Under the pieces are notes generated by a model. It worked only from the letters and a program-made list of their open reading frames with translations, was not told the origin of the DNA and did no database searches. Made by a program: the position numbers and the translations under genes. This document shows, in pieces, positions 3,170 to 63,512 of a stretch of DNA of 64,000 nucleotides (its first letter is position 1; every line of letters starts with the position of its first letter). Source of the DNA: Octopus vulgaris (Eukaryota); contig OX597816.1 of assembly GCA_951406725.2 (NCBI GenBank), positions 149,048,001 through 149,112,000 on the forward strand. The letters are read 5' to 3'.

Positions 3170-3599
3170 GATCTAAAAGAAGCATGATGAAATGCAGTGA
3201 GATACACTGTGAAGTATGAAATATTAATTGAAGGGTTAGTATGTAACTGTAGAGCAGTTGAAAACTTGCAACTGCTGCGGTAATAATGAAGTGGTAGTAA
3301 GAAGAACGGTAACTGTATAAAATTAGATGATATTAGTGTTATGAAATGAAAATGAGAATGGAAACAGTTGTGAAAAGGAAGGCGAGAAAAATGGTAAGAG
3401 CAAAGGAGAAATTGTTTATGAATTGCGTTGAGAATGTTGTCGTTTGTGTGAACATGAAGTGTGGGTGTTGTTTGTCAATGTATGGCTGCTTTGTCGTATA
3501 GATTGGATAGGGAAAGGGTTAATGAAAGAGCAAGTGGATGAGTTGCTTAGGTTTGTTTAGTGGTGCTAGTGGGGCAGAAACTGCCGTTGATGCTGCATG

Positions 3600-18657: not shown

Positions 18658-20226
18658 TTGCCTAAAATGAAAATGTGCAATTCATTGAGAAGAAATATAT
18701 ATAAGAGAAGAATAATAACTCAATAGTATTGTCAAAATACCATTTTAGTCATCACATACCATCTGTCATGTGATTGTTGATTTCTTAACCTTTGATTCTT
18801 CACGTGTTGCTCCCCAATGTGCTCTACCTTGTTCTGTTTTTTTATGTATCATTTTCATTTGAGTGTTGAGGAAGTGAGGCATGATCAAACAAAGAAATAA
18901 AGATTTCAGTTAAGTGGAAATAATTTGGACAGTGATGAATAAATAAATTATGTTAATGAAAATGTCAATGATAACTAAAAATTCTTGTTTGTAAGACTAA
19001 CAAATAATACTGAATTCCCATATTGAAACTTCCACTAAGGAAAAATGGAATCTGTTAGGCACATAAGTATACGGCAAATCCCAAAAGCATTCAAAATCAA
19101 CATGAACAGAGAATCTCTACAGAATTCTAAAACTGAAATGAGAATGGAGCTGGATGTTATACTTATCCTATTCTGAAATCTGACATGATGGTAACATGTA
19201 ATTTGTCTTCAACATCAAATATATAGTAACTGCTGCCACAATTCACACAGATTTTCTATGGTAGCTTTTACCCAGAAAGGTTTTCAACATTGTAATTCCT
19301 GACTGAATTTATAATTCATTTGACAGTAGTGTCATTACATTTGTATTTTTATCACATACATTGATTCCAAAATTATACTCAATTGACATGGATAGCGATC
19401 CCTCAACACTGTATAGTATTTAACTCATTCTTAATGAAAATTGTGGAGTGGCTACAATACTAAAAGTTTACATCACAAGAAACTTCATATCATGAGGCTT
19501 CTTAATACATTTATCCTACATGTATCTTTGGTTTCTGAAATTAACTGCAATATCAATGACCTTCCAAACAAATTCTGGAAGCAAATGTTTGTTCTATTTC
19601 TCCTATATGTGTGTGATGCTTAAGAAGGTATACCTGATTTATCTACCTTGAGAGCTGCAAGATGAGTTTTACTCCACCATTTCTGAGCTTCTAATCTTGC
19701 CTGCCATTGTTCTGCTGTTTCTGCCAGCAAACTTTGGCTTTGGTAAGGAATCAATGGCACTAGACGTGCTAGGATTGAGCTGAAAATTTACACACCTATA
19801 GAAGGTGTGGTGTAGTTACGGCCAGAGTAGGTTTTAAGTCTCTATCTCGATAACAAAGCCCGAAACGATGCATTTTCTGCGAGCGAGTGGATGTCATACA
19901 CTATTGCCTTGAGTTGTGTTCACGCAACATGTTGGATTCTATGTATGACTGTGCACGTGTTTGCACGAATGCAACAGAAAAATGGGGCGAAAACACATTC
20001 AAATTTTGAGCTTTCTGAAAAACAAAATATGAGCATATACGTAGAAAAATTTCCTGAATCGGTTGGAGCAAGTTTGAATTCTCTAGCTTGAAAAATGCAA
20101 ATTCTAGCAGTTTTGAGTGTGCCTCTTTAAGGAGTTCTCAGTTGAAAATGGTGTCAAAAAATAGCTCAAAATGAGAGAATTGTTTTGCAGACTGCTTCAA
20201 AAATCGAACGGGAAGTGTTCTTAATA

Positions 20227-24000: not shown

Positions 24001-24780
24001 GAAAACCTGCATAAATCGTGGCTCCTCTCCTGATTGTGGGAGAAGGCTCCCAATTTTGTGGTAACATTGGCCATGAATTTGGAAAGTAAAAAGCTTTTCT
24101 TTGGGCCTTGTAACAGTGGTTTGAGAAGTGCTGGCAACCTCAGTGTTGTCAGTGTTTGTCCTTGTTATTCAGCTGTCACTCACACCAAAAGACATCATCG
24201 AAAAACATGAGTTGTATCTCTATAAACTCTTTCGAAACAGCTTTCCGTGGTCAGAGTCACTGGTGAGGTCCTGGATTATTTTGGGAGGAGCAGCCAGTGC
24301 CTCAAGATGAACTTTGCCCCCGGAACAGCAGAGACCTGGAGTCTCCCCTCTCCACTTTTTCGCCCCGCAGTATTTGCAGACTTGATCCATCTGTCCTATA
24401 GAAACGTCGGCTCGCGTAGTCATAAGTAGGATCATAGTTGAAACCTACCATCAACCAAAAATTTTGTTCTGGACGATGTCGTTGTTGTCTTCAACGTTGC
24501 TGGTCCTGCAAACGAATCTTCCTGGCCTCCTAATTCTCAGTCATACGGGTGAATCGATCCCTTTCGCGCTGGGCAGAAAGACGTGATTCTCTGGCAGCAG
24601 AAGTCTCGCTTCTTCGTGATTGCCTGGTGGATTAGGAGAAAGGGCAACGCTCACATGCCTCATTACTCTCTTCGATGCATGAAAGGGTCGAACTATCATT
24701 TTGTTCAGCAACAGGAAATTCCACTGATTGCGGCGTTTCCTCAGAAGGAAGACCCTGTAGAGACGGATAGCATCATTCAA
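21022..24780 (-). pseudogene. Helitron 2 RepHel (zinc finger, Rep HUH endonuclease, PIF1-like SF1 helicase); many frameshifts and stops
   Basis: CKYCGAKKWRGETPGLCCSGGKV; EWRKRGLPYAHILIW (degenerate HUH motif); SIKYISKYINKG; FFLDAPDGTGKT (Walker A); LAGDFRQTLPV; FPIKVCFGMSINKAQGQSL; FTHGQLYVGCSR. Confidence 0.93.
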
Positions 24781-30135: not shown

Positions 30136-31797
30136 ATGTTTTCTGATCATTTGAATTGCTGCCTTGAATCAAATATACAATTTCTGTTGACACACCAAAT
30201 ATCATGAAAATCAAATATGTGCAAAACTTAAGTAATTCCATTCAGATTATTACTTCCCTGTATTACTCCCATACTTTTTCTTTGTCTAACTGAAAGCACG
30301 TTTATAGTGACCGCAAGAGTTTTAGGTGTTTACGTTTTGTTCACAAAAATAGGAAGATTGGGTACAAAACTGTTTCCTTGATATGTGTAATGAGTGATTG
30401 AGTCTTTGAGTTGTTGAAAGAAACTTGGTTAGCATGTTCCCATAGAAGAGGGTTCTCACAGTCCTTGTTCACAGAAGCATTGTATATCTGGCATAAGGGG
30501 TTTATGCTGTTTATAGCTGACACTTGTGCACTGAAGATAAAGTATCATCCTACGTAGGACTGCATGTTGTTTAGTGTAACAGCAAATTGATAGAAAGCAG
30601 TGTTCTTTTATATATATTCTTTTACTAGACCCAATAACTGTTTGTGGTCATATGACTCTACTGGTGGATTCCTTCCAAAGGTTTTATTAATAATATCAAC
30701 TCCAGCATTTATTTAAGTCATCTACTTATTTTATCACAAGACACCATTCACAACCATTTTGTATTGGTAAACACAGAAACACTCTCACTCAACTTCAAAG
30801 TCAGGAAGGGGGGAGAGAGAGAGTGTGTGTGTGCTTGACAATGTGTGATAGCCTTTCAATTGAAAGCAGTAGAGAAGTTAACTTTCTAACTTAATGAGAG
30901 CCTCCATTACAGTTATAGACAACCCTGCTATCTAAGATATGTCATCAAAGGATTGGTTAAGAATATCTTGATTATGGTTTCCATTTTTTTCAGGATAGTG
31001 ATTTATAAAGTTGCAGTATTAAGTTTATCCCAGTCACCAAGCCATTGACCCTCATATATACACACACACTCATATATATATATATCATCATTTAACACTT
31101 TTGTTCCTATTGGAATGAGTTGGACAGTTTGACTGTATACAATGAGTCTAAAGATTACATTCTGTTCCAGTGTCTTCTTTGGCATGGTTCCTACTCCTGG
31201 ATATCCTTCCTAATGCTAAACAATACAAACTATACTGGGTGCTATTTTCATGTCACCAACACTAGCGAGGTCACCATGCAGCTGGCAAGACTACAAATTC
31301 TAAGGAGAGGATGGTTTTATGTAAGATGAAGGGTTAAACTATCATACTGTAGAGGAGCTACATAGTTACATATTGAAGTCACAATGATTGGGGGAAGCTG
31401 GGAAGAGATGAAATAGTGGTGATAAAGTTATGAGGTGTGTAGAAGTGAGTGGAAACATCTTTGGAATATTGGACAAAATGCTTTGTAATATTTCACATTC
31501 CAAATTCAAATCTCTACTAGGCTGACACTGCATTTCCTCCTAGCATCCCTTTACACCAAAGATGATCCTAAGTGCAGATGAACATAAAAGCCCATGACAG
31601 AATCACAAGGCATTTCTGTTCACACTGCAATTTCATCATCACCTACTGATACAAAGTTTCCATCGACTAACTTTCCCTCACAAGAAACTGAAAATGCAGA
31701 GCAATGGAAACAAACTCAGAACCACAATTTTGTAAAACGAATATCTTAACATCACAGCCATACCTGCACATGAAAGGTTATTTAGTCATTTTCTCTA

Positions 31798-32766
31798 TCA
31801 CATAAGATCATCTGCTTCATATAAACCTACATGTTTAAGATTTGTATGTTGTGTACATAATGGTACGTTGTCCCTTCCTGCTGTAAAAAGTCTTATAGGA
31901 TAGACACCTTCATTACTACCAGATGTCATAATGTTCTCAATTGACTGGATAGTTGCTATACTTTGGTGTAGCATTTTAGATGCATCATTTTGTATGGAAA
32001 TAGACTGGGAAGACCTTTTCTCTTCAATGCATGACACAGGAGGTAAGTCAGAAACTATAGAGCCTTCAAATACATTAGACTTTAATTTACATGTTGGTCC
32101 ATATATCACATGTGATACTGTATTGCTTGAAACTGGAGTGGATATGTAAGCCTCATTGTTCAGTTGACCATATTTCTCATTATCAAGCCCTACAGGTTCA
32201 GTTTTCACTCTGAGAACAAAATCAGAATCATTTGAGCAGTCACCATATGTATTAGCATCCAATGAGTCAATTTCAGATTCCTGTTCAATGACACCAGCAG
32301 TACCATTTTTAACTTGTGCTAATGCAGCCTCACATATCTCTTGTTTAACATCAATGACTTGTGTAATGAAAGATGGAGTAGATTGAGATGTAACTGATGT
32401 GATGGATGATGAAGGCAGAGATGGTTGAACTGTTGGCACTGTGATATTGGTTGGAACTGGCAGACCGGCTTGTGTCTGGTTCTGCCTAAGATCAGTCGAC
32501 GGTTGGTTTATTTTGTTTATAAGATTGTTATCACACATTTCTTCAAATTTTTTCATTTCTAATTGTTTTGCAATGATTTTTAATTGCTGTAAAATATCTG
32601 GATCAAGATCTAAATATCCATTGTACATGTATTCTGCAAATGCATTTAAAGCTTGTGTACTAACTTCTTCTGGAAAGTTTATTTGGAGAAACTTCTGAGA
32701 GGAAATATTTGTACTAAATACTGACAATAGTTTTGGACACACAGCAGATAGAATAACTTTATGTAC
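31798..32766 (-). CDS. BTB/POZ-domain protein paralog 2, last coding exon
   Basis: tttcag|GTA CAT acceptor; VHKVILSAVCPKL...FAEYMYNGYLDL...AKQLEMKKFEEMC; 969 nt open to TGA; tail homologous to paralogs 1 and 3. Confidence 0.9.
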   Translation of the reverse strand, partial: VHKVILSAVCPKLLSVFSTNISSQKFLQINFPEEVSTQALNAFAEYMYNGYLDLDPDILQQLKIIAKQLEMKKFEEMCDNNLINKINQPSTDLRQNQTQAGLPVPTNITVPTVQPSLPSSSITSVTSQSTPSFITQVIDVKQEICEAALAQVKNGTAGVIEQESEIDSLDANTYGDCSNDSDFVLRVKTEPVGLDNEKYGQLNNEAYISTPVSSNTVSHVIYGPTCKLKSNVFEGSIVSDLPPVSCIEEKRSSQSISIQNDASKMLHQSIATIQSIENIMTSGSNEGVYPIRLFTAGRDNVPLCTQHTNLKHVGLYEADDLM

Positions 32767-33793
32767 CTGAAATACAGAAAATAATGAGAAATTTTTTTAG
32801 CCATCTAATAATTGAATTGCAAAACATTTTTAAATATTACAACTCAATTAAAACAAAAAAATATTTATTCCAAGAAACTTCATGGAAATATCAATTGAAA
32901 GGTAAAAAATATATTTATTCATTCATAAATTGTCACTAAAGTTTCTGATACTTTATGTATAAAAATGCTATATTTTGCAGTGAGAAACTTGATTCAAACT
33001 TCATTTATTCCACTAGGATATTTAATTAATCTCTCTCTATATATATAATAAGCCAAATCATATGGCTTTTTTGTGGGGTTCATCTCTTTCTGTCACACAA
33101 CAAAGAGGTAGAAGAAAGTAGTAAAATTTTGCTGGGAGATATGGAAGAAAAGAAATTAAGCATTATAAAGAGAGGTGGATGAGATAGAAAAATAGATACA
33201 TGTCAGACAAATAGAGAAATAGCTACCAGTTAGTTAGCTAGTCTGACAATCAGGTGTAGCCAACAGTGAAATATAGGGAGAGATGAAAGAGTGAGAGAGG
33301 AAGAGATAGTGTGAGTAAAAGAAAAGATGTGCAATAAAGAAAGAAACAGCTCTACAATATAGGCAGGTAAAAAGCTATCATGATGAAATAAGTAGATAAA
33401 GCAGTGACTGTGCTGAGAGAAGTGGAAAAGAGAGTTTTATAAAAAGAGGTGGATTGGATATACAAATAGAAAATGAAGCAGGACTTGAGGAAAAAGATCA
33501 TGAATTAGTGAAAGACCAGAAAAGAACATCAATGTTGGTATAAAATAAACTTTACTTTTACTTTGCAAAATATTAACTAATAAACAAGATGTTTGTCATT
33601 AAGAAAATCCAAACATTGCTAAAAATAAAGATCAGTAAAAATTAATAATTTTAACCATCATCTCTGGCATGAAAACAAAGCTTCTTGAAAGATGTGTATA
33701 CTTGAGATATTTTGAACAGTTACATTTTGAAAATTATGATGAGTCAAATAGAAAAAGAGATAAGCATTTTAAATGTCAAGACAAAACACTTAC

Positions 33794-34094
33794 CATTACA
33801 GTTGATGAACCATTACCAATACTAGCATCACACAATTTTTTACTTTTCCACAGTGCTGCCAGGTTGGACATGACATGGAGCTGATGATCAGCAACAGCAA
33901 GTATTCTTTTCCTCTGATGATCATCAATAGCAAGTATTCTTTTCCTCTGATGCCAAGGCTTCCTAACACCATTTGGTTTGGGTACAGGTATCTGTGCTGA
34001 CTGAGCAACATCCATACACTGTTGGACTGGCATTTGGGAAGCAATTTGAAGAGAATTTGCAATTATCTGAGATACCTGAGTGTTAATCATGTGT
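33794..34094 (-). CDS. BTB paralog 2, exon carrying the BTB N-terminal half
   Basis: tttcag|ACACATG acceptor; ...HVMSNLAALWKSKKLCDASIGNGSSTVM|GTAAGT phase-0 donor at the same position as in paralogs 1 and 3. Confidence 0.85.
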
Positions 34095-34183
34095 CTGAAA
34101 TAAAAGATTATAATTTACTTCAGAATAATTTTATGGGTGAAAATGCAAATTCAATCATCAGAATAATTTCAGTTGCAACATAC

Positions 34184-34278
34184 TTATCAGCATCAAACAG
34201 TTGATCATCAGTCTGCACCTGCTCTGTATATTGTTGCTTCATTGATTCTTCCGAATAACATTGATTTGACAATTCTGC
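34184..34278 (-). CDS. BTB paralog 2, 95-nt upstream exon (AELSNQCYSEESMKQQYTEQVQTDDQLFDADK)
   Basis: ctttcag|GCA acceptor, AA|GTATGT donor and an 89-nt intron; joins in frame (AA+A CAC ATG) to the next exon. Confidence 0.7.
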
Positions 34279-37200
34279 CTGAAAGTATAAAGAGATACAT
34301 GAGTATCATAAAGAATAGTTTGCTTTGTAATGAATTTAAAAGTGGTGATTATTGACCTAACCAGCCTCTCCAATTCTAAATGAAGCTATTTCACATAAAA
34401 GCAGTAGATAAAAAGTGTATAATAGTAAGAAATGTCTTTCATAATTATTTCATCCACTCACTCATGAAAAATCTTTAGAAAGAAAGCATTTATAAAGGAA
34501 CATAAGGTTTATTAACAGATCTAAGAAATATTGTTCCCAGAAAGAAACATTAAATGAAAATAATAACAGGACAGTTACTAAACACAGAAACATCAGATTT
34601 TATAAAATTGCTTCAACTTATATAAAAAATTCATCATAATAATTGTTTAATGTCCATTTTCTATGCTGGCATAGACTGGACAGTTTGGCAGAGGATAGCA
34701 CCAGGCTCCAATGTCTGTTTTAGCATGGTTTCTATGAGTGGATGCCTTTCCTAACACCAACAACTTGACCGAGTGTACTGAGTACTTTTTACATGCCACT
34801 GACACTAATGAGGTCACTAAATAATTCACAAAACAAGACTACCTCTAACTTGAAACTAAATTAGTAAATATAGAGTCTGAAAAGTTACCTAGGAATCTAA
34901 AAATTTAATAATATTCATTTGTTAACTGTTTATTATTATTATTATTATACTAAAAGACAATTTTAAAATGAATACAAAATTACTTTAGTTATGACAAAAT
35001 GGTGCTGTTTATATCCTCCATTTTCAGCTTTTCAGAGATTACCTCTTTTAGTAGAATTTTCTATACCTCTTAATTTCTACACAGTTATTGTCCTTGAACT
35101 ATTGAATAGTCTTGGGTTTATAGATGTATGAATGCACCTTTAGATAACGCACAGCAAAATGTAATTAGCGAGAAAAAACATTCCTTTTACTAATACTGAT
35201 CATCCTCTCACAAAGATTTGTGGACAGGAAGATTTGGCTTATTATATATATAGAGAGAGATTTTTAAATATTACAACTAAATTAAAACAAAAAATTATTT
35301 ATTCCAAGAAACCTCATGGAAATATCAATTGAAAGGTAAAAAATATATTTATTCATTCATAAATTGTCACTAAAGTTTGATACTTTATGTATAAAAATGC
35401 TATATTTTGCAGTGGGAATATATAATAAGCCAAATCATATGGCCCTTTTGTGGAGTTCATCTCTTTCTGTCACACAGCAAAGAGGTAGAAGAAAGTAGTA
35501 AAATTTTTGCTGAGATATGGAAGAAAAGAAATTAAGCATTATAAAGAGAGGTGGATAAGATAGAAAAATAGATATATGAAAAATTATCAATGAAAAGAAA
35601 ACTTTCATGTTATTCAGGATGACAATCTTTCCTGAAAAAATAGTGATAAAAGTTAGATGCAAAAGTTTGCTATCATAATTTTCAGATGTCCAAATTTTGA
35701 CTATAGGTGTGAAATTTTTGATTTGGATAAACATAATGTCACAAATACATTGTTAGATACTGTAGTTATTGGAAATGGAATGGCTCCATGTCTTTACAAT
35801 GCAACCTTGCATGAAAGACAGATGCCTTAAGAAAATATTATAGGATTCACAAGTAATAATTGTTCTTCCATGATAGGCACTAAAAATAGATTTCACAAAT
35901 TTTCGAAAGATAATGTCTTCTATTTTCGTAATAGGATACACCACTCACCCTGGATACTAACCATGTTGTCATGTTCTCCTAGAGACAAGAGTTACTTCAG
36001 TGGAGGCACAATGGCCCAGCAGTTAGGGCAGTGGACTTGCGGTCGTAAGAACGCAGTTTTGATACTGGGCATTGTGAATTTCTATTGAGCAAAAGCACCT
36101 AAGCTCCATGAGACTCTAGCGGGGGGAGGGGGGAATGAACCCTGCTGTACTCTTTCACCACAACTTTCTCTCTTTCTTCCTACTTCTGCCACAAAGCAGA
36201 GGAACCATGGTGTAACCCACTATGGTGTGGAAAACTTTCAGACCCTAGTCTAGATTGCAAATCCTCTGTACCCCAGGATGGTTCAGCCCTCCACCCGTTA
36301 AAAGCCACCGTTTACGGAATGAGGATAACAACGTAGCTTTCACGTCCGTGCAACTGCCAGTCTATCACATGTGGTGGGTGGATCTTCAAGTTGCCACACG
36401 CATTCTTAGTAGCTTAGAGTAGGCTCGAATTAGAGATTATTCTTTGTGGCTAATGGCGTGAATCTTGATTGGAAGAAGACGAAGAAGAAGAAGAGTTACT
36501 TCATTCTCAGCAGCAGTACACTATAGGAGACTTATTCAAGGAATTGTTGCATCAAGTCAACACAAAATGCCTAAACAAAGTGGTTTTCTTGAGAAACAGT
36601 TATTACAATGATAGCAGAATAATTGAATACTTTATTTTCAAAGTGAATGAAAAGTTGATAAAGTTGATGTTGCCAGAATTTATATGGTATTAAGCAATCA
36701 CAGAACCAAGCACATATGACTTTATCATCAGTAGGTGCTACAAAAGAAGCACATACTAAAGATAAAGATGTGTGTATAGAAGGTGAATTTGCTGAATGTT
36801 GTATTTCAATCTGAGCATTTCAATTTACATTCTCCTTGTCTAATATCATTAGAATACAAAAATCTCAATTAAAAATAAAAAATTTATTGAAGATGAATTA
36901 CTGAAGAACATTACGTAATTACTGAAGAACATAAAGTAATTACAAAAACATTAATGGTGTTTACTTTGGGAGAAAGACAACAGCATATTTACAAAATTTA
37001 ATTTTTGATGATGAAAGCCATGTTAGAAGATTTTAAACTTTTTGAAATTCCTAGTGGAATTCAAGTAAGTAAAAGGTTTTTCTATTTAGTGAAGATGAAA
37101 TTATTGCTAAGTTAAAGATATTAGATCCCAGTATATAGCTTACATCTACCATTTCAGTAGCTGTTCGTTTTCCATACATCTACTGTGTCAGCAAGTAGTC

Positions 37201-37288
37201 TAATGCTTTAGCATTTAAACCAGCCATATCTATCTCAAATATTTTACCTTTTTTATGTTAACACTGGTCACATCCAGCCTCTCATACC

Positions 37289-38968
37289 GGGGCTCAGACA
37301 AAAGCCCCACGATTATATTTTTCGTTTTTAGAATTTTCTGTTGAATGTATTGACCCCAGAATTTTTTAAAAACTTTTTCTACTTAACAATGCTGGGACGC
37401 CACCCTGAAGAATATTTAGATGGCTGTATGGATCCCAGAATTTCTTTTTAAGCTTGATCAATACCACTTCTGTGATATAATTCATTTTTGTTTTTCTTTT
37501 TACTTGTTGCAGTTAATAAACTGCGGCTATGCTGGGACACCACCTTGAGGAATTTTCAGTTAACTGTATCGACCCCCAAATTTTTTTTAGATGATTTTAA
37601 ACCAGCGCATTAAGTTAAACCTGAAAAGTCTCTCAACATGCTAGAAATAACACCCAAATCGCTTGAAAACTTTATACCCCCCCCCCCCACCGTTATATTT
37701 TTTGGTTATTCCTCCTTTTTTTTTATTTTCTAAAAATCTTTTTACTTGCTTCAGTCACTGAACTGCAGCCATGCTGGGTCACTGCCTTAAAGAATTTTTA
37801 GGCGGGTGTATCGACCCCAGAATCATTTTTAAATGATTTTCAACCAGCACGCAGTTGAACCTAGGTCTCTAGATATGTTAGCAATAACAGCCAAATGTTA
37901 CAAATTTTTGGCGATGCTTCGGTATAGGTACACACGTGACTTTGTTTACATTTCTGAAGATAACAGAAACCCTTTTCTCACACCCCTAACCCTAACCCCC
38001 CACCCCATATATAAAAAAACACTTTTTTGAGATGTATCCGGTACTTCCGGAAGTACACCGGTACTTATACCGTAACATCGCCAAAGTTATTTTCCAAAAT
38101 TCCAATTTTTAAGTAAACAAACTATATTCAATCGAAAAACGGTGTCAAAACATCTATGCCTCTCACAATGGTATGCTCCGTGTGTGTCAATTATGTCCCT
38201 CGTTTTTAGAATAATTTCAAAGTTCGAAACTGAAAATAAATCAACCATAGCATCAATAATAGAATAACAGAACACAAGACTCATTACTAATCAGCGTACA
38301 TATTGTCTGAATTCCAACAGAAGGGAAAGTATTTACTTCAAGAAATGTGTAGAAACATAAAAACAATAAGTACGTTTGAATGACTATATAGACACATACA
38401 TAAAATGCAAGTAAATATTACACATGTCACTGACTTTTTTTTTTCCTAACAAAAACCAGAATTTGTCATTTTTATAGAGAAACACCCATCTCCCTATTTG
38501 GGCTAACGATAAAAGTACATGAGTGACTAGCCTTCTGTGAGACTTTCAACAGCCGCAGAAAGTTCAAAAGGCCAACTTATTCTCATTAATCTGTAAGTGC
38601 TGAGAGAAGAAAAAAGACTTTAAATACATATTTTAAAATGCTGATTTTTCTGCGACCAAAAATTCTTGAAGCTGGTGCCTCAGCTTGGCTGCAGTCCAAT
38701 GACTGAAACAAGTAAGGGGTCATAAAAAATTTCAAGAGATTTGGCTGTTATTTCTAGCATGTGAAGATACCTTCTAGTCTTAACTTCATGCGCTGGTTGA
38801 AAATCATTTAAAAATTTCTGGGGTTGTTTCATCCGACTAAAAATTCTTCAAGTTGGTGCCACAACATAGCCGCAGTAAAAGGTGAAAGGAAAAAAAAAAC
38901 GAATAATCGAAAAATGTAACCGTGGGGCTTTTGTCCACTTTCACTATGGGGCTTTTGTCCTACACGCC
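37289..38968. mobile_element. ~1.7-kb TIR/foldback element with a 7-8-bp TSD ((C)TCATACC)
   Basis: Left ggggctcagacaaaagcccc and right ggggcttttgtcctacacgcc; ctcatacc on both sides; long imperfect internal inverted arms. Confidence 0.7.
37910..38082. mobile_element. Small MITE (GGCGAT...ATCGCC termini) nested in the 37289 element
   Basis: GGCGATGCTTCGGTATAGGTAC...GTACTTATACCGTAACATCGCC; relatives at 40801-40925 and 9771-9925. Confidence 0.78.
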
Positions 38969-39660
38969 TCATACCTACCATTCAATGTCATTCTAAAATT
39001 AATCACATCATCAAAATCTCAAAGCTATGAGATAATGCATGATTATTTCAAAACAATGTGAATAAAGAAGCATTATATTTGACAGAGATATCTGAATGCT
39101 AAAGAGTTGGATGATCAATGAACTTCTCATATTGCAGCACACAATTTTCCTAACTCTACAGAAAATATTCCTGAATACTGGTTGGTACAAGTTAAAAGAC
39201 GTAAAAGATAGACTTCATAACGAAAAATACGATTTGCTTTCATATTTCATAACAAATTTACCTACAGTACCACGTTTGCCAGCATTCGTTCTACGTATAA
39301 AGCTAAGTAAAATACAGCTATTTCTATTTCAAACGATATCTTTACTATCTAGGTTTTTTCCCCCCCAAACCTTAACTGGAGTTATGTTAAAGGTTTCAAT
39401 TGCAGCCCTGCTTAAAGTTACAAGTATATCTGGAAAACTCAGCCACTTACACCAAAAATGAGAAGTTAATTCGGTTATATAACTTGTAAACTCGTCAATC
39501 TCGACACACACACACATTTTTATTCTGCCTCTGTACATCTGAAGATATAGGCATGTATCTGCATCTACGAAACTGTAAGTAATGTGGAGCTGAGTCAATA
39601 AGTTATTAAATATTTACAACACCTCAACGGATGAGAGCTGATTCACCTGTATATACTTAC

Positions 39661-40065
39661 AAACATTCTTTGCTGATTTCTAGCGTTCTCATTCCTGGTC
39701 ATCTGTTTCCTTCTCATCTTCCTCTTTTGGTCTTTAGCCAGCAAACCCTGCCCTTCGTCAGTAAGTCGTGCCAGCTTTTTTCTGGCGAATCTTAGCCTAT
39801 TCTTGACCAGTAGTTCCTTTCTCTCTTCATCAGTCATCGCCTTCCTCCTTTTCGCCATTCTTAGCCTTTCCTTGTCTCGTACCTCCTGTCTTTTTTCAAC
39901 AGACATCGCCTGTCTTATTCTGGCAATTCTTTGCCTTTCCTTGGCTAATCGCTCTGTCCTTTCTTCAGGAGACATCGCTTGCTTTTTCTTGGCCCTTCGT
40001 TGTCTATCTTTCGTTCTCTCCTGCTCTCTCTCCTCGGCAGACATCTCATGTCTTTTTCTGCTCAT
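39661..40065 (-). CDS. Exon encoding four basic 23-aa (STPR-like) repeats; candidate first coding exon of BTB paralog 2 (589-aa model)
   Basis: MSAEEREQERTKDRQRRAKKKQA / MSPEERTERLAKERQRIARIRQA / MSVEKRQEVRDKERLRMAKRRKA / MTDEERKELLVKNRLRFARKKLA; ends TTT|GTAAGT in phase 0, compatible with the phase-0 acceptor at 34278. The splice link is inferred. Confidence 0.55.
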
Positions 40066-40800
40066 CTTGTCCAAATATTTAGCGTGTACCTCCACTTTGA
40101 ATGTGGGTGATAAATTTTTATATACTTCTTTTTTTATTTTATTTTACTAGTGTCTGCCTTTACCGATGTCAAATCTTTTACAACAAATGTAATTTATACT
40201 CTCAAGGACTTGACTTGTTATTGTAACAATCTAACGGTGCAGAGCTATTCGCTTGATCCACTAAAAAACTTTTCCGCATTTTTCACTGTTAAAAGTCTAC
40301 AGTAGATTATTACAGAAAACAGTTTTGTTCTCTTATTACATCAGCCGGTAATACCAATCTCTTTTAAATTTCCTTCAAATCACATCCTACCTTCTTAAAT
40401 AAGGAAAGGATGCTTTATATTAAGTAAACCTATTATAAGCCTATACTTCTTAAAAGATGGAACGATCCTTACCCTGAATGTTTCAGATCATAGACCTCCT
40501 GGTCATAGTTGACTTGGGACTGAACGACAATCATTAAAAAAAAAAGAAAAAAGAATTTGTAGGGTTACATTTCGAGATATTATCCTATTGCTGACCAACT
40601 GTTAACCTTTCTTTTTACGATCTATTTCAGGTCAATTTCGTTGCTTACTATCAACACTTTGCTGAGTTGGTGAGATGCGTGAAAAAAACAAACTCACCTT
40701 TCCACACTTTCAGAATAAAACAATCTTGGTAAATTCATATTTTAATTAGTAGTACCGTAGTACTTAGTTATATAATAAATATTTTAACAGTTGCCACTTT

Positions 40801-40925
40801 GGCGATCCTTCGGTATAAGTACACACGTGACTTTGTTTACATTTCTGAAGATAACAGAACCCCCCTCCCCCCAATATATAAAAAAAAAACACTACTTACA
40901 CCGGTACTTATACCGAAGTTACGCC
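40801..40925. mobile_element. 125-bp MITE of the GGCGAT family
   Basis: GGCGATCCTTCGGTATAAGTAC...GTACTTATACCGAAGTTACGCC. Confidence 0.75.
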
Positions 40926-41157
40926 CTTTTATTTATTATTTACTTTTTAGCCTGGAAAATATTCTAAATCGGAACTTTAAATTCCTGCGGCCGCCCACGA
41001 TGATTTCACGACTTCAAATGACATTCAGATTATTTACACTTTAGCTCTTACTTCAAATATGTGAATTATCTACCTCTCTCCGTAGAATGGCCATATTCGA
41101 AACTTTAGAATTCGTGTTTTCTTTATGAAAAACAAACTTACTTCGCACATCATGAAC

Positions 41158-41298
41158 GAAAGGCTAAGAATGGCGAAAAGGAGGAAGGCGATGACTGATG
41201 AAGAGAGAAAGGAACTACTGGTCAAGAATAGGCTAAGATTCGCCAGAAAAAAGCTGGCACGACTTACTGACGAAAGGCAGGGTTTGCTGGCTAAAGAC
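41158..41298 (+). repeat. Near-perfect inverted duplicate of 39730-39870
   Basis: gaaaggctaagaatggcgaaaaggagg...ggtttgctggctaaagac is the reverse complement of the exon sequence with one visible substitution. Confidence 0.92.
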
Positions 41299-41797
41299 TA
41301 AATCATGAACTGATTTTTGCTGAAGCAGATCGTCACTAGTTCCCGAGATTATTAGTCTGTTTAAATCAGTGATTCTCAACAATTTTTTTTCTTCTGTATT
41401 CTTTTGATATGACTCGACAGAATCAAAACACTTCAATTCGGCTGTTTCCGTGAAAGCACGTGTCTGTGTCTTGTCAAATGAAGTAGAAGAAAGCTAATGG
41501 GTTGTACGTACGTGCGTACCTATTCTTGTCTATACCTGTTCTATTTTTATGTATTTATGTATTTATCTATCTATCTATCTCTGGACAGACAGACGCAAGC
41601 CAAACGGGCTCCAAGTAAGTTGGTCATTTTGTACGTTCAAAAGTGTTTATTGTCAAATATTTTGTGTTTAAAAGTTGTGTAACAACATCCACTGCAAACC
41701 TTGATTAATATCTACACAAAATTTCGTCCCTTGTGGGCAAAATTTTTAAAATTCTCATAGGCCTCGTGTTGTATTTTAGCCATTTTTATTTTCAAAA

Positions 41798-43863
41798 ATG
41801 GCTACTGGTCACTACGAGGCTAAGGCGCAAGTCAAGCGTGACGCCAAAACAAAAAAGCAGGATTCCCTGTCACCATGCGCTGAACTTGACAGTTTGAACG
41901 CTACTAACACCACCACCATCAGCATCGACAACAGCAACAACTACATAACAAAGGTCGCAAGGCCAAGCACCGTCACCGCCACCAATGATTCCACCATCAA
42001 CACCGACACCAATGATTCCACCATCAACACCGACACCACCACCATGGCAGCTTCTGCTACCTCTGCTAACGATACCACTAACAACAACAACAAAACCAAG
42101 GTCGCAAGGCCAATCCCTGTCACCGCAACCAATGATTCTACCAACACCGACACCCTCCTTGACAACGCTTACGACGTTGAGTTCCCCATACTGCTTTCAC
42201 CACAATTTCATAAAGCAGGGGAAATGGGGAAAAACAACACGAACACAAATGTGAGCATGAACGCTAACATCGCGACCTCCACTCAAAAACTGGTAAACAA
42301 CCCTACTTCACAGTTATCTACTACTACGAACGACTCTGCCACAAACATCACCACCACCACCACCTCCACAAAAAACAATTTCGTGGAAGCCATACGACCG
42401 AAAAGAAGAATCCTAAAATTTACTCACCAACAAATACAAGACACAAAGTCCTTGCTCACCAAAGAAGGTGACACAATGCATTTAAATATTCCATAGAAGA
42501 AACACAAAAGAAGACCATCATTTACAGAATACTCAACACCAAAACAAAAAGACCAGAAAGCCTACCTAAAGGAAAAATTGAAAAGTGCCTCTCTTCCGTG
42601 TGGAAATTCCGAAATTATGTGAATTGGGGAAGTAAATTTGCTACCGTGCAAGTTCGCTTTCATACGGAAGAACTAGCAAAAAAGTTTTCAACCCTTACTC
42701 TGCGCACAGGACAGGTAACAATGGTTACGAAAGTTACGCAGAGTTACGAAAGTTACAATATACAATGTGCCGCCAGTAGTGAATACCTAGTGGCTGGTAT
42801 CGGCCATCTGCTTCGATATAGAAGAAGCAGATATTTTAGAAATAGCTGATATTCCATAGGAAAGCTGGACTGGTAAAATACTCGAAATATTGCTTCAAAT
42901 CTCCCAAGAAGCAATAAACAATTTACCATCCAGTGTTCAACTGGCAAAAGGTCAAAAATTGTATGTAGTGGTGGAGGACAGGAGGCCAAGATGCTATTTA
43001 TGCAACAGTGAGGCACACCTTAGATATGAGTGCCCAACTGCTGTCAGAAATAGGCAACAGCAACCACTCCCCAAACCTGGAAGGAGACCCGTGCTACCCA
43101 CACCACCTTCAACCCAAAAGACAGGAAAAACAGCGGACGATACAAAAACTGTTTCCCCCTCACCAACCACATCACCAAGAAGAGAATTACCTCCGACATC
43201 ACAACCAACAAAAGAAACAACATCACCACCAACATCAGAAGACAGACCAACACCAGCACCAAGAACAACAACCAAAAAAACAAATAACAATGACGAAAAG
43301 ACAAATTCTGCCCCTAATACCCCAACAACACAAACAGCACACAAAACAACAACACCTTCTACAAACACACATATAGATCCAAACGCTTTGCCTTTACCCC
43401 CTTCTGATTCGTCGAACTCGTCGTCCAACGACGAAAGTTCGACGGAATGGCAAATAGCCACAGGGGGTAAAAGGAAAAGACCAAAAAAGCCCACCAAACA
43501 AGTAAGTAAAGCAGGGAGATATTTAACTTCGGACAGCATCCCCTTAGACAATGAAAAAAAATCAATGACCCCGCAAAACCACACACACAACTAACAGCAA
43601 TAGACACGGACAATAAAAAACTAATGGATTACATTGCATCCAACACGAACATCTGCGAAGATGACTTTAAGACAATCATCCACGCACCACTCCACCGAAA
43701 CACATAAGAATTGTACACATAACACAAACACAACACCATACACTGAAAACCATATTTCCAAATGCGGTTGGGGGGTTTCAAAAATACCTCTCAAAAAAAC
43801 TATTCAAACATCTCCGCAAAGACACTACAAAAGATGAAGAAAAAACTGAAACTTTCGAAATGA
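41798..43863 (+). pseudogene. LINE A ORF1 (T/N-rich leader, RRM-like region, CX2CX4HX4C knuckle, P/T-rich tail); disrupted
   Basis: RRPRCYLCNSEAHLRYECP; several in-frame stops and frameshifts. Confidence 0.8.
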
Positions 43864-43937
43864 GTAAGTCACCTTCCCTCTTGCCTCTTGTCTCTTCCAG
43901 TGCAGTGTGTGAAACACAAATTTCTTAAACGTCAATT

Positions 43938-46900
43938 ATGCTTAAATTAGGTTGTGTGAATGCGCGTGGCTTGGCATCAGCTTGGAAACAAGGTTACCTT
44001 CTAAACAACATCAAGTCACTGAACGTGGATATGGTAGCTATCAGTGAAACCAGACTCAGCAAGCCGCGGGTCCTCGCGTGCATGTTTGGCGACCAATTTG
44101 ACATTTATTTTTCTCTCTGTCTGCCGAACATGGGTGGTGGAGGTACCGTGGTGCTTTTTCGAAAGAATCTAAATGTAAAAGTAAGAACAATATTCCTAGG
44201 CTGGTTGTCTTGGACGTGGATGGCAGAAATGGGTGTGCATTCTGTCTGATGGCAGTTTATGCACCGTCCTTAACGGGTCGGGCGGATTTCTTCAGACGTC
44301 TAGAGGTTTTCCTGGGTACGTCTAGACCTTTACTGTTAGTGGGGGATTGGAACGCTACCTTGGACACGCATATAGATTATGTGGGAATGGATAGGAATAG
44401 AAGGGGGTGTAAGTGCCTCAAAGACCTACTCAGACGTTTCCATTTGTCTGACAGGTTCCGACTCCACCATCCGAACGTGGACTTGGACAAACCGTGTCGG
44501 ATCGTCGAGATCTTATCTAGATAGAATTCTATGCAGGACAGCGGATAGGGATAGTGTAGGATGTCCACAATTTAAAATAGTCAGCTACACAGATCACAAA
44601 TTTGTGACGTGTACGCTCGACTTAGATAAGACACATAGACAGGGTCCCGGTTACTGGAAATTGAACACGTCGCTCTTAGCGCGACAGGTTTACAAGAACC
44701 GGATTAGCGAGCTAATTAAGAGGGCGCTGGCGGGAGCCGTCGTTAACAACCGCTGGTGGTTCGCCCTGAAAATGGCAATAAAATCGGAATCAATTAGGTT
44801 TAGCAAGGAATTAGCGATAGATCGAAATAGAGTAGAGGGAGACCTGGTTAAGAAACTAGAAGAGGCACTTACCACTGGCAGCACAACCAACGTGCTGGCT
44901 GCGAGGATGGCCCTCGACCAATACCTCAACGCCAAGCACGAAGGTTGTGTCGTCAGAGCTAAAATGCGTGCCTTAAGGAACGAAGCTGTGCGAGAGGCCC
45001 GGGTAGCGGAGGCGCAGCGTGGCAACAGAGCCACCATTCGGTCTCTAATAGATCAACAGGGATGCAGTTTACTCGAACCCGAAAGGATGTGTGAGGCCTT
45101 TCAACAGCACTTTGCTCGACTGTTTTGTGCGAGTGGTGGGTCGGAACGCGGGATGGATTTCAGTGCCTACCTGACCGACCTGCCGCGGCTCTCGGCAAAA
45201 GAAGCGGAGTGTTGTGAAAGTCCCATCACAGCCGCTGACGTGCGGGCTGCGCGAGTGATAAGTCGCCTGGATTGGATGGTTTACCCTACGAGCTGTATTG
45301 TCAAATGCCAGACTTGTTTGGCGACCTCTTGGCATCAGTCTACTGCAACTGGCAACAAAACGAGAGAATCCCTGGTTTCGTGAGCCGAGGTGCAGTGACG
45401 TTGCTGAAGAAAGATCCAAACAAGGGGAATTTTATAGATAATTTCAGGCCCATCACTCTGCTCAACGCAGATTTGAAAAAGTAATAGCCGAGAGGTTGGC
45501 GCTTGTCATTGGTAAACTGGTCGACAGGGCGCAAACATGCACCGTGCCGGGCAGAACCATACATGACAATCTCCATCTGATGCGCTACATTGTGGACAGG
45601 GTAGTTAAGGATTCTGACATGGGTGGGGCGCTGATCAATTTGGATCAGTCTAAAGCCTTCGATAGGGTCGACCATCGGTACTTGGCGGCTGGCTTCGGTC
45701 CCGTCTTCCGCGGTTGGATCGCTGCCTTGTATAGCGGCATCCGATCGGTGATTCGGGCGAACGGCCACCTGTCGAAACCGTTTGACATCACGCGTTCGGT
45801 CCGTCAGGGGTGTCCCCTGTCGGCGCTTCTGTATGTATTGACTCTCGAGCCGCTACTGCGGAAGCTGGCGACACTGAGGGGCATCCCATGGGAACTGGGT
45901 TGCGGGACGAGCGTGTCGGCATATGCGGACGATGTCACCGTCATACTGTCGAGCGAAAAACACATCCAGATGATAGGCGAGACACTAAGAAAATACGAAA
46001 CGGTGACGGGAGCGAGGATTAACCCGGAAAAGTCAGTGGGTTTGCTACTCGGCACCTAGAGAAGCAAGCCCATGCCGTCCGACTGCGGCTCAGTAGTGGG
46101 ACGCTGGACGGACGGACCGGTTAAATTGCTCGGGGTCTGGTTCAGTCCGAACCTCCAAATGGATAAGAACTGGAACGAGATCACGAATAGAGTGGTCGCT
46201 CTCAGCCAAACATGGGCCGAGAGAAAGCTGTCTCTAAAAGGTCAGGCGGAGGTGTCGAACGCGTACATCGCATCCGTCATCGATTACCGCCTGACCGTCG
46301 TGCCTTGTCCCGGCGCCACCATCACCAAACTGGAACGCATATTCTTCCGCTTCCTGTGGAAGGGTGGCGTTCCAATGGTGAGGAGGTCCATTTGCTGTCA
46401 ATATCCGTTGAATGGAGGACTGGGCATGCCGTGGTTGATGATGCGCTGAGACTGCGACATCTCTGGAACTTCATCGATGACGGTGAACAGGTGTGGGCGC
46501 CGTTTGTGAGGCGCGCCTTCCCGTAGCACGTCTCACTGACCGAAGTGCAAACGTGGATCAAGAAGAGACCGAAACTGGGCGATTGGCACCAAGAGTGTCG
46601 CCAAGCTCTACAGCAGCTCTGCCGACCGGGGTCAAACTTGTGCAACTTACAAACGACTAAAGCGTTCTATAGAGGACTAGTGGAGGGGAGGTCCGACGAC
46701 ACACTCGGGGCAAATCTGGTCGTCGACGAGAAATTCCTAACCCGCCTGTTCAGGACGACGTTCGGGCCGGGGCTTATGGATAACTTCCAGAAATCCCTGG
46801 CTTGGCAATGCTATCGAGACGCACTACCTGTTCGAGAGAAGAGCTACAGGCACGGTTCGAAAACCATCACCGGACCATCCTGCCCGAGATGCAGTCAGAG

Positions 46901-47298
46901 CGATGAAACCGTTCTGCACGCACTCGTGCAGTGTCCAGATATTTCAGAGCTGTGGACCTTTGTCGAGCAGCTGTTGTCGCGTGTAGGACGGGCCCGCTTA
47001 TCGGCCGAGTCTATCGTGAATATTGTTCCACCACCTTCCTTTAAACGGGAAGGGAAAACGGTTTTCGTTACCCTGATGGCTATGGCGAAATAATGTGTGT
47101 GGTGGACGCGTTTGAAAGGACTGCAAACAAACACCTTCCTCTGGTTAGTCTCTCGTCAACTTTTTCAAGTACCATTTGAAAAGGAGGATGAGAATAGAGA
47201 GGAAGGCTTTGTCGAACGAATGTTTTAATAAAAAGTGGGTAAAAGTGGCAAAAATGGTCAGTATGAAAGACGACACTATTTTAAGCGTAAATCTGTAA
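43938..47298 (+). pseudogene. LINE A ORF2 (AP endonuclease, reverse transcriptase, C-terminal zinc finger); disrupted
   Basis: CVNARGL, ISET, VGDWNA, SYLDRI, YTDHK, GPGYWKLN, FRPITLLNAD, LDQSKAFDRV, VRQGCPLS, AYADDVT, CPRC...ETVLHALVQC. Confidence 0.92.
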
Positions 47299-47412
47299 CC
47301 AAAACAGACAACGAGAGGTAAGGTGACTTACTCGTGTTCATTTTCGAACTGTCTGAGGTGACCTTGGTCTTTTTTGTAGGTTTTTCTTTCCAGGGCTACA
47401 CCTAAACTGTGA

Positions 47413-47416
<4 letters not shown>

Positions 47417-47493
<77 letters not shown>
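47417..47493. repeat. (TA)n microsatellite in the LINE A 3' UTR
   Basis: Pure TA run. Confidence 0.95.
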
Positions 47494-47499
<6 letters not shown>

Positions 47500-47759
47500 T
47501 TTATACACCACACAACCCACAGATCCCTATTAATCGAACGTTTTTTTTTTTCTTTGTGTCCCACCCATCCCACTTCGAAAAGAAAAAACTCTACATTGTA
47601 TTTCGTCCATTTTTATTCTGTGTTTAGCCCTGTGTGGCCACAATAAAAAGTCATGTATTTATGTGTTGTGGAATATAACGAAATTATGCCAGCAATGTCT
47701 CATTTTAAACTGCTTTCGGTTGCTTTATTCTCAATGCTCGTATATTTCAATTGATGCCT

Positions 47760-50700: not shown

Positions 50701-51310
50701 TGGACAATGAAACTGTCCAGCACGTTTTTGTACAATGTCGGGAGCTATCCAGCTTGATAAGTTACGTCGAACACGTGCTGTTGCATCTAGGACGAGTACA
50801 GCTGTCAGCTGAATCTATAATAAAGATGATACCGCCAACTGGACTCACAAAGAAAGGTAAGGCATGTTTTTACTGTACGGTTGCAGTACTGAAAGAGTGT
50901 GTTTGGAGGACGAGAATGGAAGGTTCTGTGAAAGGGTCCTTCATCTCTGCTGTCTTACTTCAGATACCATCTGAAGAGCAAGATGGGGTTGGAGAGGAAA
51001 TCCCTGCCACCGAGAGAATATGAGAAACGATGGAAGGATGTGATGAGAAAGTTGGGTGTTAGTAACCCAGCTTAATCATTGCTGAAAGGAAAAGATAGTT
51101 GCTGGGCCTTATAGGCTGCCGGGTTTCGATCTTTTAAACTTTTATTCGTTTTCTTTCTTTGTTTTATTTTATTTTAAAAAAGTTCTAGTTTAAAGGGAAT
51201 TAATCATTGTATAAAATATTTTTAAGTAAATTTTTAAAACGATATTCATACGAACTCATATAACATTTTTTGTTTTTGTTTGTCTTGTAATGTCCCTTTC
51301 TATGTAAGAT
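47760..51310 (+). mobile_element. Tx1/L1-like non-LTR retrotransposon B, internally deleted (lacks RT)
   Basis: Degraded ORF1 from about 47918; ORF2 starts ATG at 49325 (MIKLSCLNVRG); APE ends YTDHKLVKV and is joined directly to the post-RT LKGRTEVVQVFIASVITYRL; CPRC...ETVQHVFVQC; stop at 51073-51075. Confidence 0.85.
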
Positions 51311-57890: not shown

Positions 57891-57924
57891 GGGAGACTAC
57901 TGCGCTGGTAGTTGTCCCTTTGGA

Positions 57925-61482: not shown

Positions 61483-61932
61483 CATCACAGCAGATGAACC
61501 GTTACTAATACTAGCATCACACAGTTTTCTATTCCTCCACAACGAAGCAATGTTAGACATCACATGGCGCTGATAATTAGCAATTACAAATATCTGTTTC
61601 CGTGGAGTTTTTCCCACAGAACAGCGGGCTTGTGTTTGTTCTGCGGTTTCAGCTGCCCTTGCTTTGGCTGTGGCAGCGGCATCTAGAGAATGGCGGGCCT
61701 GTTTTTGTTTTGCAGTTTCGGCTGCTCTTGCATTGGCCATGGCAGCGGCATTTCGTGAACGGCGGGCCTGTGTTTGTTCTGCGGTTTCAGCTGCCCTTGC
61801 GTTGGCCAAGGCAGCGGCATTCAGAGCTAATCGAGTAGCTCTGTCTTGGAGTGCCTCTTTGGCCCTTTTGGCCCTATGAGCCTCTGCACCAGCCGTCCTT
61901 CTTCCAATGCGGACCCTCTTCTTTGGGGGCAT
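61483..61932 (-). CDS. BTB paralog 3, first coding exon: Helitron-like N-terminus with 23-aa repeats fused to the BTB N-terminal half (468-aa model)
   Basis: AAAATG start; MPPKKRVRIGRRTAG...AETAEQTQAR repeats...RHVMSNIASLWRNRKLCDASISNGSSAVM|GTAAGT; phase-0 join to 56579. Confidence 0.82.
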
Positions 61933-63512
61933 TTTGGCAATTTATTGAAATAAGTGAACTTTAAATGGATTTAATTTTTGTGGACTAAGTGAGATAGTTT
62001 GGGGCAACCGATAAGCACACGATTTTAAGTAATGGCAAAGCAATAATCAAAACGATAATGGCAGAAACGGTACCCAAATGGAAAACAAAGGGCTATTTAA
62101 AAACAGTAAAAAAAATCGTAGACAGGTTTCAGGTTTTCAAGCACAAAAACTGTTTACTGTGCTTGTAGGTTGGTGAAAAAAACGTTGGCTGCTCAAGAGA
62201 AGCAGTAATCAAAAAGTGATATCAAACACGAAAACGTCTATTTTTTACTCAAAAAATGATGCTGAACTACAAATTCTCTAATTAATACTTTGGTTAATCA
62301 AATCTTGAACTGATATCGAGCACAAAAAGACCAAAAAAATTGGTGTCAAACTGCAGAAGATGCTTTAAGTAAGTGTTAATTTATGAGTTGATAGGCAAAA
62401 ATATAGCCGGGCAACCCAAGTAAAAGTGATAGGTAAAATGGAATTTTATGAACAAAACTTGTGGTCAGTAACGGAAATCGAGTCACGAAGCGTAATTGTG
62501 AAAAGCGTTTGAGTTTGGTCGCCAAAGCATGCATCCTCATGCTTAATTAACGCATCGAATCTTAATTTATAATTATCTAGTACGCGCAAATCCAAGGCCG
62601 CGCATCCAACGTCAGATGTTTACGTATGTCCCTCAGCAGCATTGGCCAGTACACGCACGCATGCATATACGCACACGTTCAAGGTCAAACGCAGTGCCAT
62701 GTTCACGCACAGGATGACTAAGTGCCTACACGGGAAAAGGCTTTTTGTGGTGTTTGATGCACGGGCTAATTAATTAGTGGAAAGTGGATTCAAGTTAGAA
62801 AAACATAGGGCATTTGTGAAGTGAGAAAACCCAATCTATTTGCGGTAGCAAACAAAGAGCTTATTATGTGGAAGTTAAGGCTAAAAGAAAGCGGTTGTAA
62901 TTCAATTTGAATGGGGAAGCCCGTAAGGTATTTTTATGGGCAAACTCTAATCAAATTAAGATTTCACGCACCATAAGTAATAATCTGAGTACCCTTGTCA
63001 CCTGCTATGTAGATAGCGAACGATTCGACCTCAGGCTGAATGCGAACTCAACAAACAATGGTTATGTGTATTTTCAAAATCATGCTGTGGTACGGTCAAA
63101 ATTCGAGTTTTTTCGCATTCTTCTTCCTCCTTTTTTTGTCCGACTATGACATGTGCACAGTTCCGCTAACTGAAAGCTTCATATTATGTGCTTGTTGTTC
63201 GTTTCCGGTGTTTCAATAAAAAGTTCTTACTTAATCAAGGTAGTGCAGAAACACTGTATGACTCGTGAGTTCTAGCCTTGAATTGTCTTAGGTACCGGTG
63301 TGCTTACCTATAAAATGGGGTAAGAACAAGACTCAAGCTTTTTACAGATAAAGATTTCTTCGTTTTGTGCTAAATCCCTTTCTTTGTTTTCGGAAATTAT
63401 GTTCGCCTTTCCTGTTTGCAAACGCGCACGCGCATGCAACTGATAAGGGTAAAATTATCTCCGTCCAATCAAAAAACAGCTAGCAGTCTATTCGGCGTAT
63501 CTAGCTGTACGC

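Follow-up and report, generated by a model that had tools for sequence, protein, structure and literature searches.

How does a gene that ends in a BTB domain come to begin with a tandem array of DNA-binding-type helices? The question is raised by a 64,000-nucleotide (nt) stretch of the Octopus vulgaris genome (assembly GCA_951406725.2, contig OX597816.1, positions 149,048,001 to 149,112,000 of the forward strand), hereafter the window, whose first letter is position 1. On its minus strand, the gene BTB paralog 2 lies downstream of an exon encoding four basic repeats with a period of 23 residues. A first-pass annotation, made from the letters alone, took this exon for an STPR-type DNA-binding module gained separately from the one carried by a neighboring gene, BTB paralog 3. 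In the present analysis the exon proves to be a transcribed first exon spliced to BTB, and we consider it probable that the product is a DNA-binding factor whose four helices came, already assembled, from the front of an old Helitron.

The repeat exon is spliced to BTB

The paralog 2 model comprises four minus-strand exons with GT-AG ends, which join into an open frame of 589 residues (Table 1). A public annotated protein labeled Octopus vulgaris (P0001) has the same length and sequence, and one labeled O. sinensis (P0002) is a 578-residue version of it. Contigs of four RNA-like runs (of 24 listed; four studies) were aligned to positions 31500-41500; the RNA type of these runs is a guess that appears on no run's record. 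The junction from 39661 to 34278 (joint 39660/34277, CT..AC on the plus strand, 5.4 kb) is present in all four runs, as are both downstream joints, and one contig of run X4 (X4#22) runs unbroken from 40467, through the repeat exon, to position 32407 in the BTB exon. The intact repeat exon (40065-39661), its phase-0 GTAAGT donor, the junction, and the in-frame 589-residue product had all been read from the letters by the first-pass annotation and are borne out.

Contigs also extend 5' of the ATG at 40065 without a joint, by 150-420 nt (to 40246 in X1, 40219 in X11, 40467 in X4, and 40484 in X3), and an additional contig spans 40461-40714, upstream of the paralog 2 start. The AG preceding this ATG has no pyrimidine tract. 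Because contigs cross the ATG from upstream without a joint, the repeat exon is a transcribed first exon with a long 5' untranslated region (UTR), spliced in frame to BTB. The upstream noncoding exon previously postulated, ending at a donor at 40697, is rejected: no joint at this donor is among the 15 joints listed (six more are not shown), and the motif is at chance level. AGGTRAGT occurs once on the minus strand and four times on the plus strand of the window and, because it recurs in this way (five times over both strands), the 40697 motif by itself is weak evidence. The spliced joint in four of four runs also argues against a separate repeat transcript; together with the upstream in-frame ATG, it disfavors the ATG inside the 95-nt exon as the sole start.

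Three of the four runs lack one copy of a 33-nt duplication (33881-33946), skipping 33895-33929. As the ends of the skip are not splice sites and it falls in a tandem duplication, it is read as an allele; the 578-residue allele of paralog 2 is common. Intron pieces flanking exons 2 and 3 (32826-33202 and 35260-35578) are duplicates with 96-98% identity, about 2.4 kb apart. Public models from a sister species splice exons of paralog 3 or of another copy, A10, into the paralog 2 acceptor (P0003, P0018-P0020), which would yield read-through proteins; no such joint is seen in the RNA-like contigs, for which the stretch examined (31500-41500) excludes those exons.

An inverted 155-nt fragment on the plus strand (41155-41309) is 96% complementary to 39719-39873 and lies 1281 nt upstream of that arm. 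If one transcript included both arms, they could pair at 96% into a duplex that might serve as an editing substrate. No editing-type difference is listed in the arm matching the fragment, and RNA cover above 41186 is near zero.

Table 1. Coordinates of paralog 2 features and of related repeat sequences in the window
Feature	Position	Strand	Remarks
Paralog 2 5' UTR	40066..40484	minus	joined without break to the coding part; minimum extent from RNA-like contigs; only short upstream open reading frames inside
Paralog 2 exon 1, coding part	39661..40065	minus	405 nt, 135 residues; donor TTT/gtaagt, phase 0
Four in-register 23-residue units (M-S/T-x-E-E/K-R...)	39769..40044	minus	predicted helices breaking at the first two residues of every unit
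Paralog 2 exon 2	34184..34278	minus	95 nt; shortened copy of the parent's last constant exon (AGPSNQ...); keeps the phase-0 acceptor onto which the variable exons of the parent splice
Paralog 2 exon 3	33794..34094	minus	301 nt; linker and N-terminal part of BTB; contains the polymorphic 33-nt duplication 33881-33946
Paralog 2 exon 4	31798..32766	minus	969 nt; remainder of BTB (PF00651, E 2.5e-9) and Ser/Thr-rich tail
AG/GTGAGT motif	40692..40699	minus	donor proposed by the first-pass annotation; no joint seen
Truncated remnant of STPR-like exon upstream of paralog 1	19623..19787	minus	type common to the clade of paralog 1
Paralog 3 N-terminus	61619..62300	minus	Helitron 5' end; ATG 61932; A-rich STPR-like units; fused in frame to BTB exon

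Repeat geometry and domain structure

The 23-residue period of the exon lies far above chance, because none of 2000 shuffles reached its autocorrelation of 0.375 at lag 23 (best lag of the shuffles ≤0.25). A single-sequence AlphaFold model (pLDDT 87, pTM 0.34, inter-helix angles unreliable) has helices at residues 10-30, 33-53, 56-75, and 79-134, which break at 31-32, 54-55, and 76-78, that is, at unit starts. The predicted pattern, helices of some 21 residues separated by two-residue linkers, is that of BmSTPR, described as having 23-residue repeats with conserved Glu1, Thr/Ser2, and Arg9, each comprising a two-residue linker and a 21-residue helix over 4 bp of AT-rich major groove (PMC4856987). 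Like the STPR domains reported for Bombyx FMBP-1 and human ZNF821 (PF21107; PMC4856987), paralog 2 has four tandem basic 23-residue repeats with Ser/Thr2 (4/4 units) and Arg6 (4/4). Unlike STPR proteins, it has Met at position 1 of all units (Glu1 in 0/4) and Arg9 in one of four, it is joined to BTB, and its relatives in the genome are Helitron N-termini. Substitution of Glu1 is reported to lower BmSTPR affinity (PMC4856987). The repeats also fall below Pfam detection, with no match to STPRs (PF21107) at E≤1; paralog 3, at 19.7, is also under the cut-off of 27. The original STPR-type assignment is qualified: the paralog 2 repeats have the basic 23-residue geometry and Ser/Thr2 but lack Glu1 and the family match, and are classed as STPR-like, not as a member of the STPR family.

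Foldseek returned no rows for the repeat model and VIA-align generic long helices only (Z≤6.6), while PDB sequence searches with the repeat exon and with a profile of Met-type repeats gave chance matches only. ESM Atlas matches all score below 0.9; among them, an STPR cluster at 0.81 counts as no more than a lead.

The BTB domain scores 37.7 bits on PF00651 (cut-off 20.5) and is, by its ratio of nonsynonymous to synonymous substitution (dN/dS) of 0.26 between paralog 2 and parent, under constraint. By Pfam, the BTB exon holds neither a BACK nor a Kelch domain, and the FxLRWN motif is missing before the BTB core of every paralog.

The parent cassette gene

In a genome-wide search, BTB copies number 12 at C3:148.965-149.172 Mb and five at C3:151.27-151.38 Mb, with single copies elsewhere. 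Paralog 2 is one of 11 tandem duplicates of a parent gene, the most upstream copy, which matches an O. bimaculoides gene annotated with isoforms numbered up to X36. The isoforms have the BTB part in common and differ in their N-termini, which map as separate exons over C3:149.173-149.354 Mb. Because the mapped exons all lie on one strand upstream of their acceptors, the cassette fits cis-splicing, and trans-splicing is unneeded. The parent gene has about 30 alternative first exons of transposon-type DNA-binding character, joined to constant exons that end in BTB.

Among 50 open reading frames (ORFs) of the parent scan (49 chosen by eye from 115 filtered, plus an STPR-like exon), 27 have matches: THAP (11), CENP-B/Tc5 (4), DUF3504 (3), Tc1-type helix-turn-helix (HTH; 3), Psq (2), Brk (2), FLYWCH (1), and zinc finger (1). 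One ORF has a weak TERT-domain match. Of the annotated variable exons, 19 were tested and each has GT at the junction, with 15 of the donors in phase 0 and four in phase 1; multi-exon and a few other N-termini were left out of this test. At two variable exons, contigs stop at the donor with 28 further letters that map elsewhere. The locus (C3:149,173,000-149,355,000) contains four nested constant acceptor exons, and some THAP fingers are apparently split between a variable and a constant exon.

This cassette, overlooked by the first-pass annotation, explains the phase-0 acceptor of paralog 2. When the 95-nt exon is compared with 1247 windows of the parent locus, it scores highest at the AGPSNQ acceptor (37; mean 18.0, standard deviation 2.6; next best 31). 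It corresponds to the last acceptor exon of the parent in shortened form, and the acceptor is for that reason taken to be inherited. Similarity between the coding exons of paralog 2 and those of the parent is 77-83%.

The parent's own STPR-like exon (C3:149,190,032-149,189,856) has a phase-0 donor and about 1.5 Glu-type units after a GRPKKY start. No joint was found for it, and it is covered in one of four runs, by a contig ending at the donor. A protein search with this exon gave nothing at E≤0.01 among 491 candidates.

Repeat gains across the BTB family

A profile of 23-residue units was run over 9339 ORFs of the regions around the BTB copies; most of the arrays found had also built the profile. 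Intact STPR-like frames lie upstream of seven of the 11 duplicates (A02, A03, A04, A06, paralog 2, paralog 3, and A10), and STPR-like exons also occur inside the parent and at three of the five genes of the second cluster. The repeat exon of A05 is lost, A01 and A11 have other domains, and A06 also carries a decayed piece of another parent exon.

A BTB tree of 25 rows unites A02-A07 in one clade, pairs paralog 3 with A10 as sisters, and groups the second cluster as a clade (100/100 in each case), with paralog 2 as a long, unresolved branch near the parent. The A02-A07 repeat exon has four matches and, because it is confined to that clade, points to one gain spread by duplication. The exon upstream of A10 that is 75% identical to the parent's STPR-like exon is for that reason taken as inherited and, because A06 has its decayed parent-exon piece as well, the duplications must have carried variable exons along. 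The A10 locus (C3:149,122,000-149,129,000) has two STPR-like exons upstream, one of them this copy. In the second cluster (C3:151.34-151.38 Mb, plus strand), three genes are each preceded by a canonical STPR exon of three to four units, above the Pfam cut-off.

Two of the repeat gains, in paralog 3 and A03, have living Helitron donors, as judged from sequence matches. Over 683 nt, the paralog 3 front end shares 88% identity with a dispersed copy, and of six such copies checked three continue into RepHel; homology of paralog 3 to its sister A10 begins exactly at 61619, placing the fusion point at 61619/61620. In A03 (C3:148,998,999-148,998,298), two arrays share a reading frame: the older exon of the clade is preceded by a recent Helitron front end of Met type. 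This Met-type array has 97 genome matches (best other copy 74% identical), and seven of 19 such loci checked continue into RepHel-like sequence; most Met-type Helitron copies carry stops. By inspection, 25 of the top 30 PF21107 loci in the genome are Helitron-type N-termini, and of 14 matches of a Met-type profile that were scanned, 4 are Pfam-positive STPR proteins. A parallel capture is found in a crustacean: the mantis shrimp protein P0050 joins a Met-type Helitron-like array to an HMG box.

By these comparisons, recruitment of STPR-type modules onto the BTB family is recurrent, and wider than the first-pass annotation proposed. Because the parent itself has an STPR-like exon, some neighboring exons were inherited by duplication and are not new gains.

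Origin of the paralog 2 array

In-register units are 49% identical within the paralog 2 array and 21% identical to those of paralog 3, and the exon has no DNA similarity to other repeat exons in the BTB-cluster regions examined. Because of this low unit identity, the lack of DNA similarity, and the sister relation of paralog 3 to A10, the sequence comparisons make the independence of the two gains well supported, as had been proposed. The paralog 3 repeats are a Helitron 5' end fused directly; those of paralog 2 are spliced. A common origin is rejected by the tree, the unit identity, the DNA comparison, and the Helitron fusion in paralog 3.

In synonymous divergence (dS), units of the paralog 2 array differ from one another (0.50-1.08, saturated in three of six pairs; each pair offers about 15 such sites) by more than paralog 2 differs from the parent (0.37-0.43), which suggests that the array arrived finished. 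Its likely source is a Helitron, by analogy with paralog 3 and A03. The proposed path to paralog 2 starts from the parent, which lies about 90 kb upstream of the paralog 2 BTB exon and splices its transposon-type first exons onto the constant exons; the 3' part of the parent was duplicated in tandem 11 times, and paralog 2 kept the phase-0 acceptor. A Helitron 5' end with a start codon, 23-residue repeats, and presumably a promoter would have landed upstream, as seen for the two neighbors, and been joined to BTB through a GT donor in paralog 2 as against direct fusion in paralog 3. In the protein, tandem helices would lie along the major groove of AT-rich DNA at about 4 bp each, as in FMBP-1, and BTB may dimerize as in ZBTB proteins, pairing two repeat arrays or pairing paralog 2 with parent isoforms. 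The predicted product is most likely a dimerizing DNA-binding regulator.

Several findings weigh against this account. Protein and DNA searches of the genome, in which the best candidates were scored, found no donor for the exon, and its sole other copy found is the inverted fragment (148-155 nt, 1.3 kb upstream). The units are about equally far (28-36% identity; 23-36% over in-register units) from canonical STPR, Met-type Helitron, and parent units, and for this reason the argument for a Helitron source is one of analogy. No orthologue of the exon was found beyond two very close octopus species, whose proteins are nearly identical. To these are added the absence of Glu1, the single Arg9, and the missing Pfam match described above, a nearest solved BTB of KLHL type, repeat exons in the A02-A07 clade with dN/dS of 0.76-1.60 and no sign of constraint, and contigs of run X1 that pass from the repeat exon into the intron (37945-39689; 39016-39689 and 37945-39030, depth ~4).

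It is conceivable, though we regard it as unlikely, that the exon is a former variable exon of the parent, or a much-changed version of its STPR-like exon, carried by the duplication and since lost from the parent or changed there, with the same function. The parent does hold an STPR-like exon with a phase-0 donor, the duplications did carry variable exons (to A10 and, in decayed form, A06), and paralog 2 units are as close to the parent unit (32% identity) as to Met-type Helitron units (23-32%). However, blastn detects no DNA similarity of the paralog 2 repeat exon or its flanks to the parent locus, although the coding exons have remained so alike, and the parent exon has about 1.5 Glu-type units after its GRPKKY start, against four Met-type units in paralog 2 that have diverged from one another more than paralog 2 has from the parent.

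An exonized transposon remnant of little function seems improbable. It would supply a promoter and a start codon, with the charged helices acting as a spacer, a nuclear-localization tail, or a single α-helix, and BTB as a dimer module or Cul3 adaptor. The 135-codon frame has stayed open and in register with no close donor surviving, while most Met-type Helitron copies carry stops, and Ser/Thr2 and Arg6 are kept in all four units, but Glu1 and Arg9 are missing, Pfam gives no match, and structure searches return generic long helices only. The BTB is KLHL-like, yet its exon has no BACK or Kelch domain by Pfam, and the parent attaches DNA-binding-type domains at the same acceptor. Constraint on captured repeats, as estimated from their sequences, is mixed across types: the A02-A07 exons look unconstrained, with one truncated and one lost, whereas the GRPKKY-type STPR exons of the second cluster have dN/dS of 0.16-0.34.

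A main product consisting of a short repeat-only protein (141 residues by read-through of the donor, where the frame closes six codons later) or of a separate transcript, with BTB splicing as a minor event, is very improbable, for although the X1 contigs enter the intron, the spliced joint is present in four of four runs, a single X4 contig covers repeat exon to BTB, and the intron cover may be pre-mRNA or DNA.

Comparison with known systems

KRAB-transposase fusions represent the same kind of capture as that proposed here for paralog 2. F-box/Tc1-HTH and BTB/integrase fusions likewise join transposon domains to host effector domains (PMC12062965), and the octopus family resembles the transposase-capture factors described there in combining a transposon DNA-binding part with a host effector, repeatedly and in a multicopy family. 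It differs in that the part captured is a Helitron N-terminal repeat array and not a cut-and-paste HTH, and that this happened several times in one tandem cluster. At the bat HelibatN3/NUBPL locus, as here, a Helitron gives a 5' exon and donor spliced to the next host acceptor; in the bats a captured host promoter was spread (PMC4778049), whereas in the octopus the Helitron's own coding N-terminus becomes the front of the protein. Both transposon-domain capture by host effectors (PMC12062965) and Helitron exon trapping (PMC4778049) are, from these accounts, known already.

The parent gene is like Drosophila mod(mdg4), credited with at least 30 isoforms, and lola, in which a constant BTB is combined with many alternative DNA-binding exons (PMC11426971). 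In the octopus, however, the order is inverted, with variable first exons and BTB downstream, and the exons lie in order on one strand. Unlike the Tramtrack group, the octopus BTB is without FxLRWN, and the cassette also spawned tandem copies with front ends of their own.

PMC10027918 reports octopus proteins (THAP-, CENP-B-, and Psq-BTB) in which BTB is attached to DNA-binding domains of transposon origin, and treats them as separate genes and BTB as a transposon part; in its main text, the words "isoform" and "Helitron" do not occur. The oyster BTB clusters reported in PMC12111275 are unrelated. In the open literature, no paper linking STPR and Helitron was found, nor any description of the cassette and its copies, although the supplements of PMC10027918 may list the proteins.

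Other features of the window and genome

The last exon of paralog 1 (16458-17837, minus strand) has an in-frame internal duplication of about 130 codons. Two broken Helitrons lie on the minus strand of the window, one with decayed 23-residue repeats at its N-terminus (1777-3172) and one just upstream of the truncated repeat exon of paralog 1 (21168-24168). Between paralogs 2 and 3, ORF translations indicate two broken elements resembling long interspersed nuclear elements and a broken stretch resembling a long terminal repeat retroelement (41780-51023 and 57170-60640, plus strand). Outside the window, the PF21107 search located a long tandem array of STPR-scoring units at C30:18,776,000-18,784,000, with a 138-nt period and open frames of up to 892 residues.

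Implications

Published counts of octopus THAP, CENP-B, and Psq genes appear to include isoforms of one cassette gene. It is interesting to speculate, although only tentatively, that STPR was originally the N-terminal DNA-gripping arm of Helitron RepHel proteins, and that the BTB cassette family traps such arms: there may have been five or six captures, from different Helitron families and two of them recent, each creating a new factor able to dimerize with the roughly 30 isoforms of the parent, with FMBP-1 and ZNF821 as older domestications. These loci link the STPR domain to Helitrons. Within about 250 kb, they form a dated series in which a single scaffold gained one class of DNA-binding module through splicing, direct fusion, and duplication, so that the origin of transcription factors from transposons can be compared directly and put to the test.

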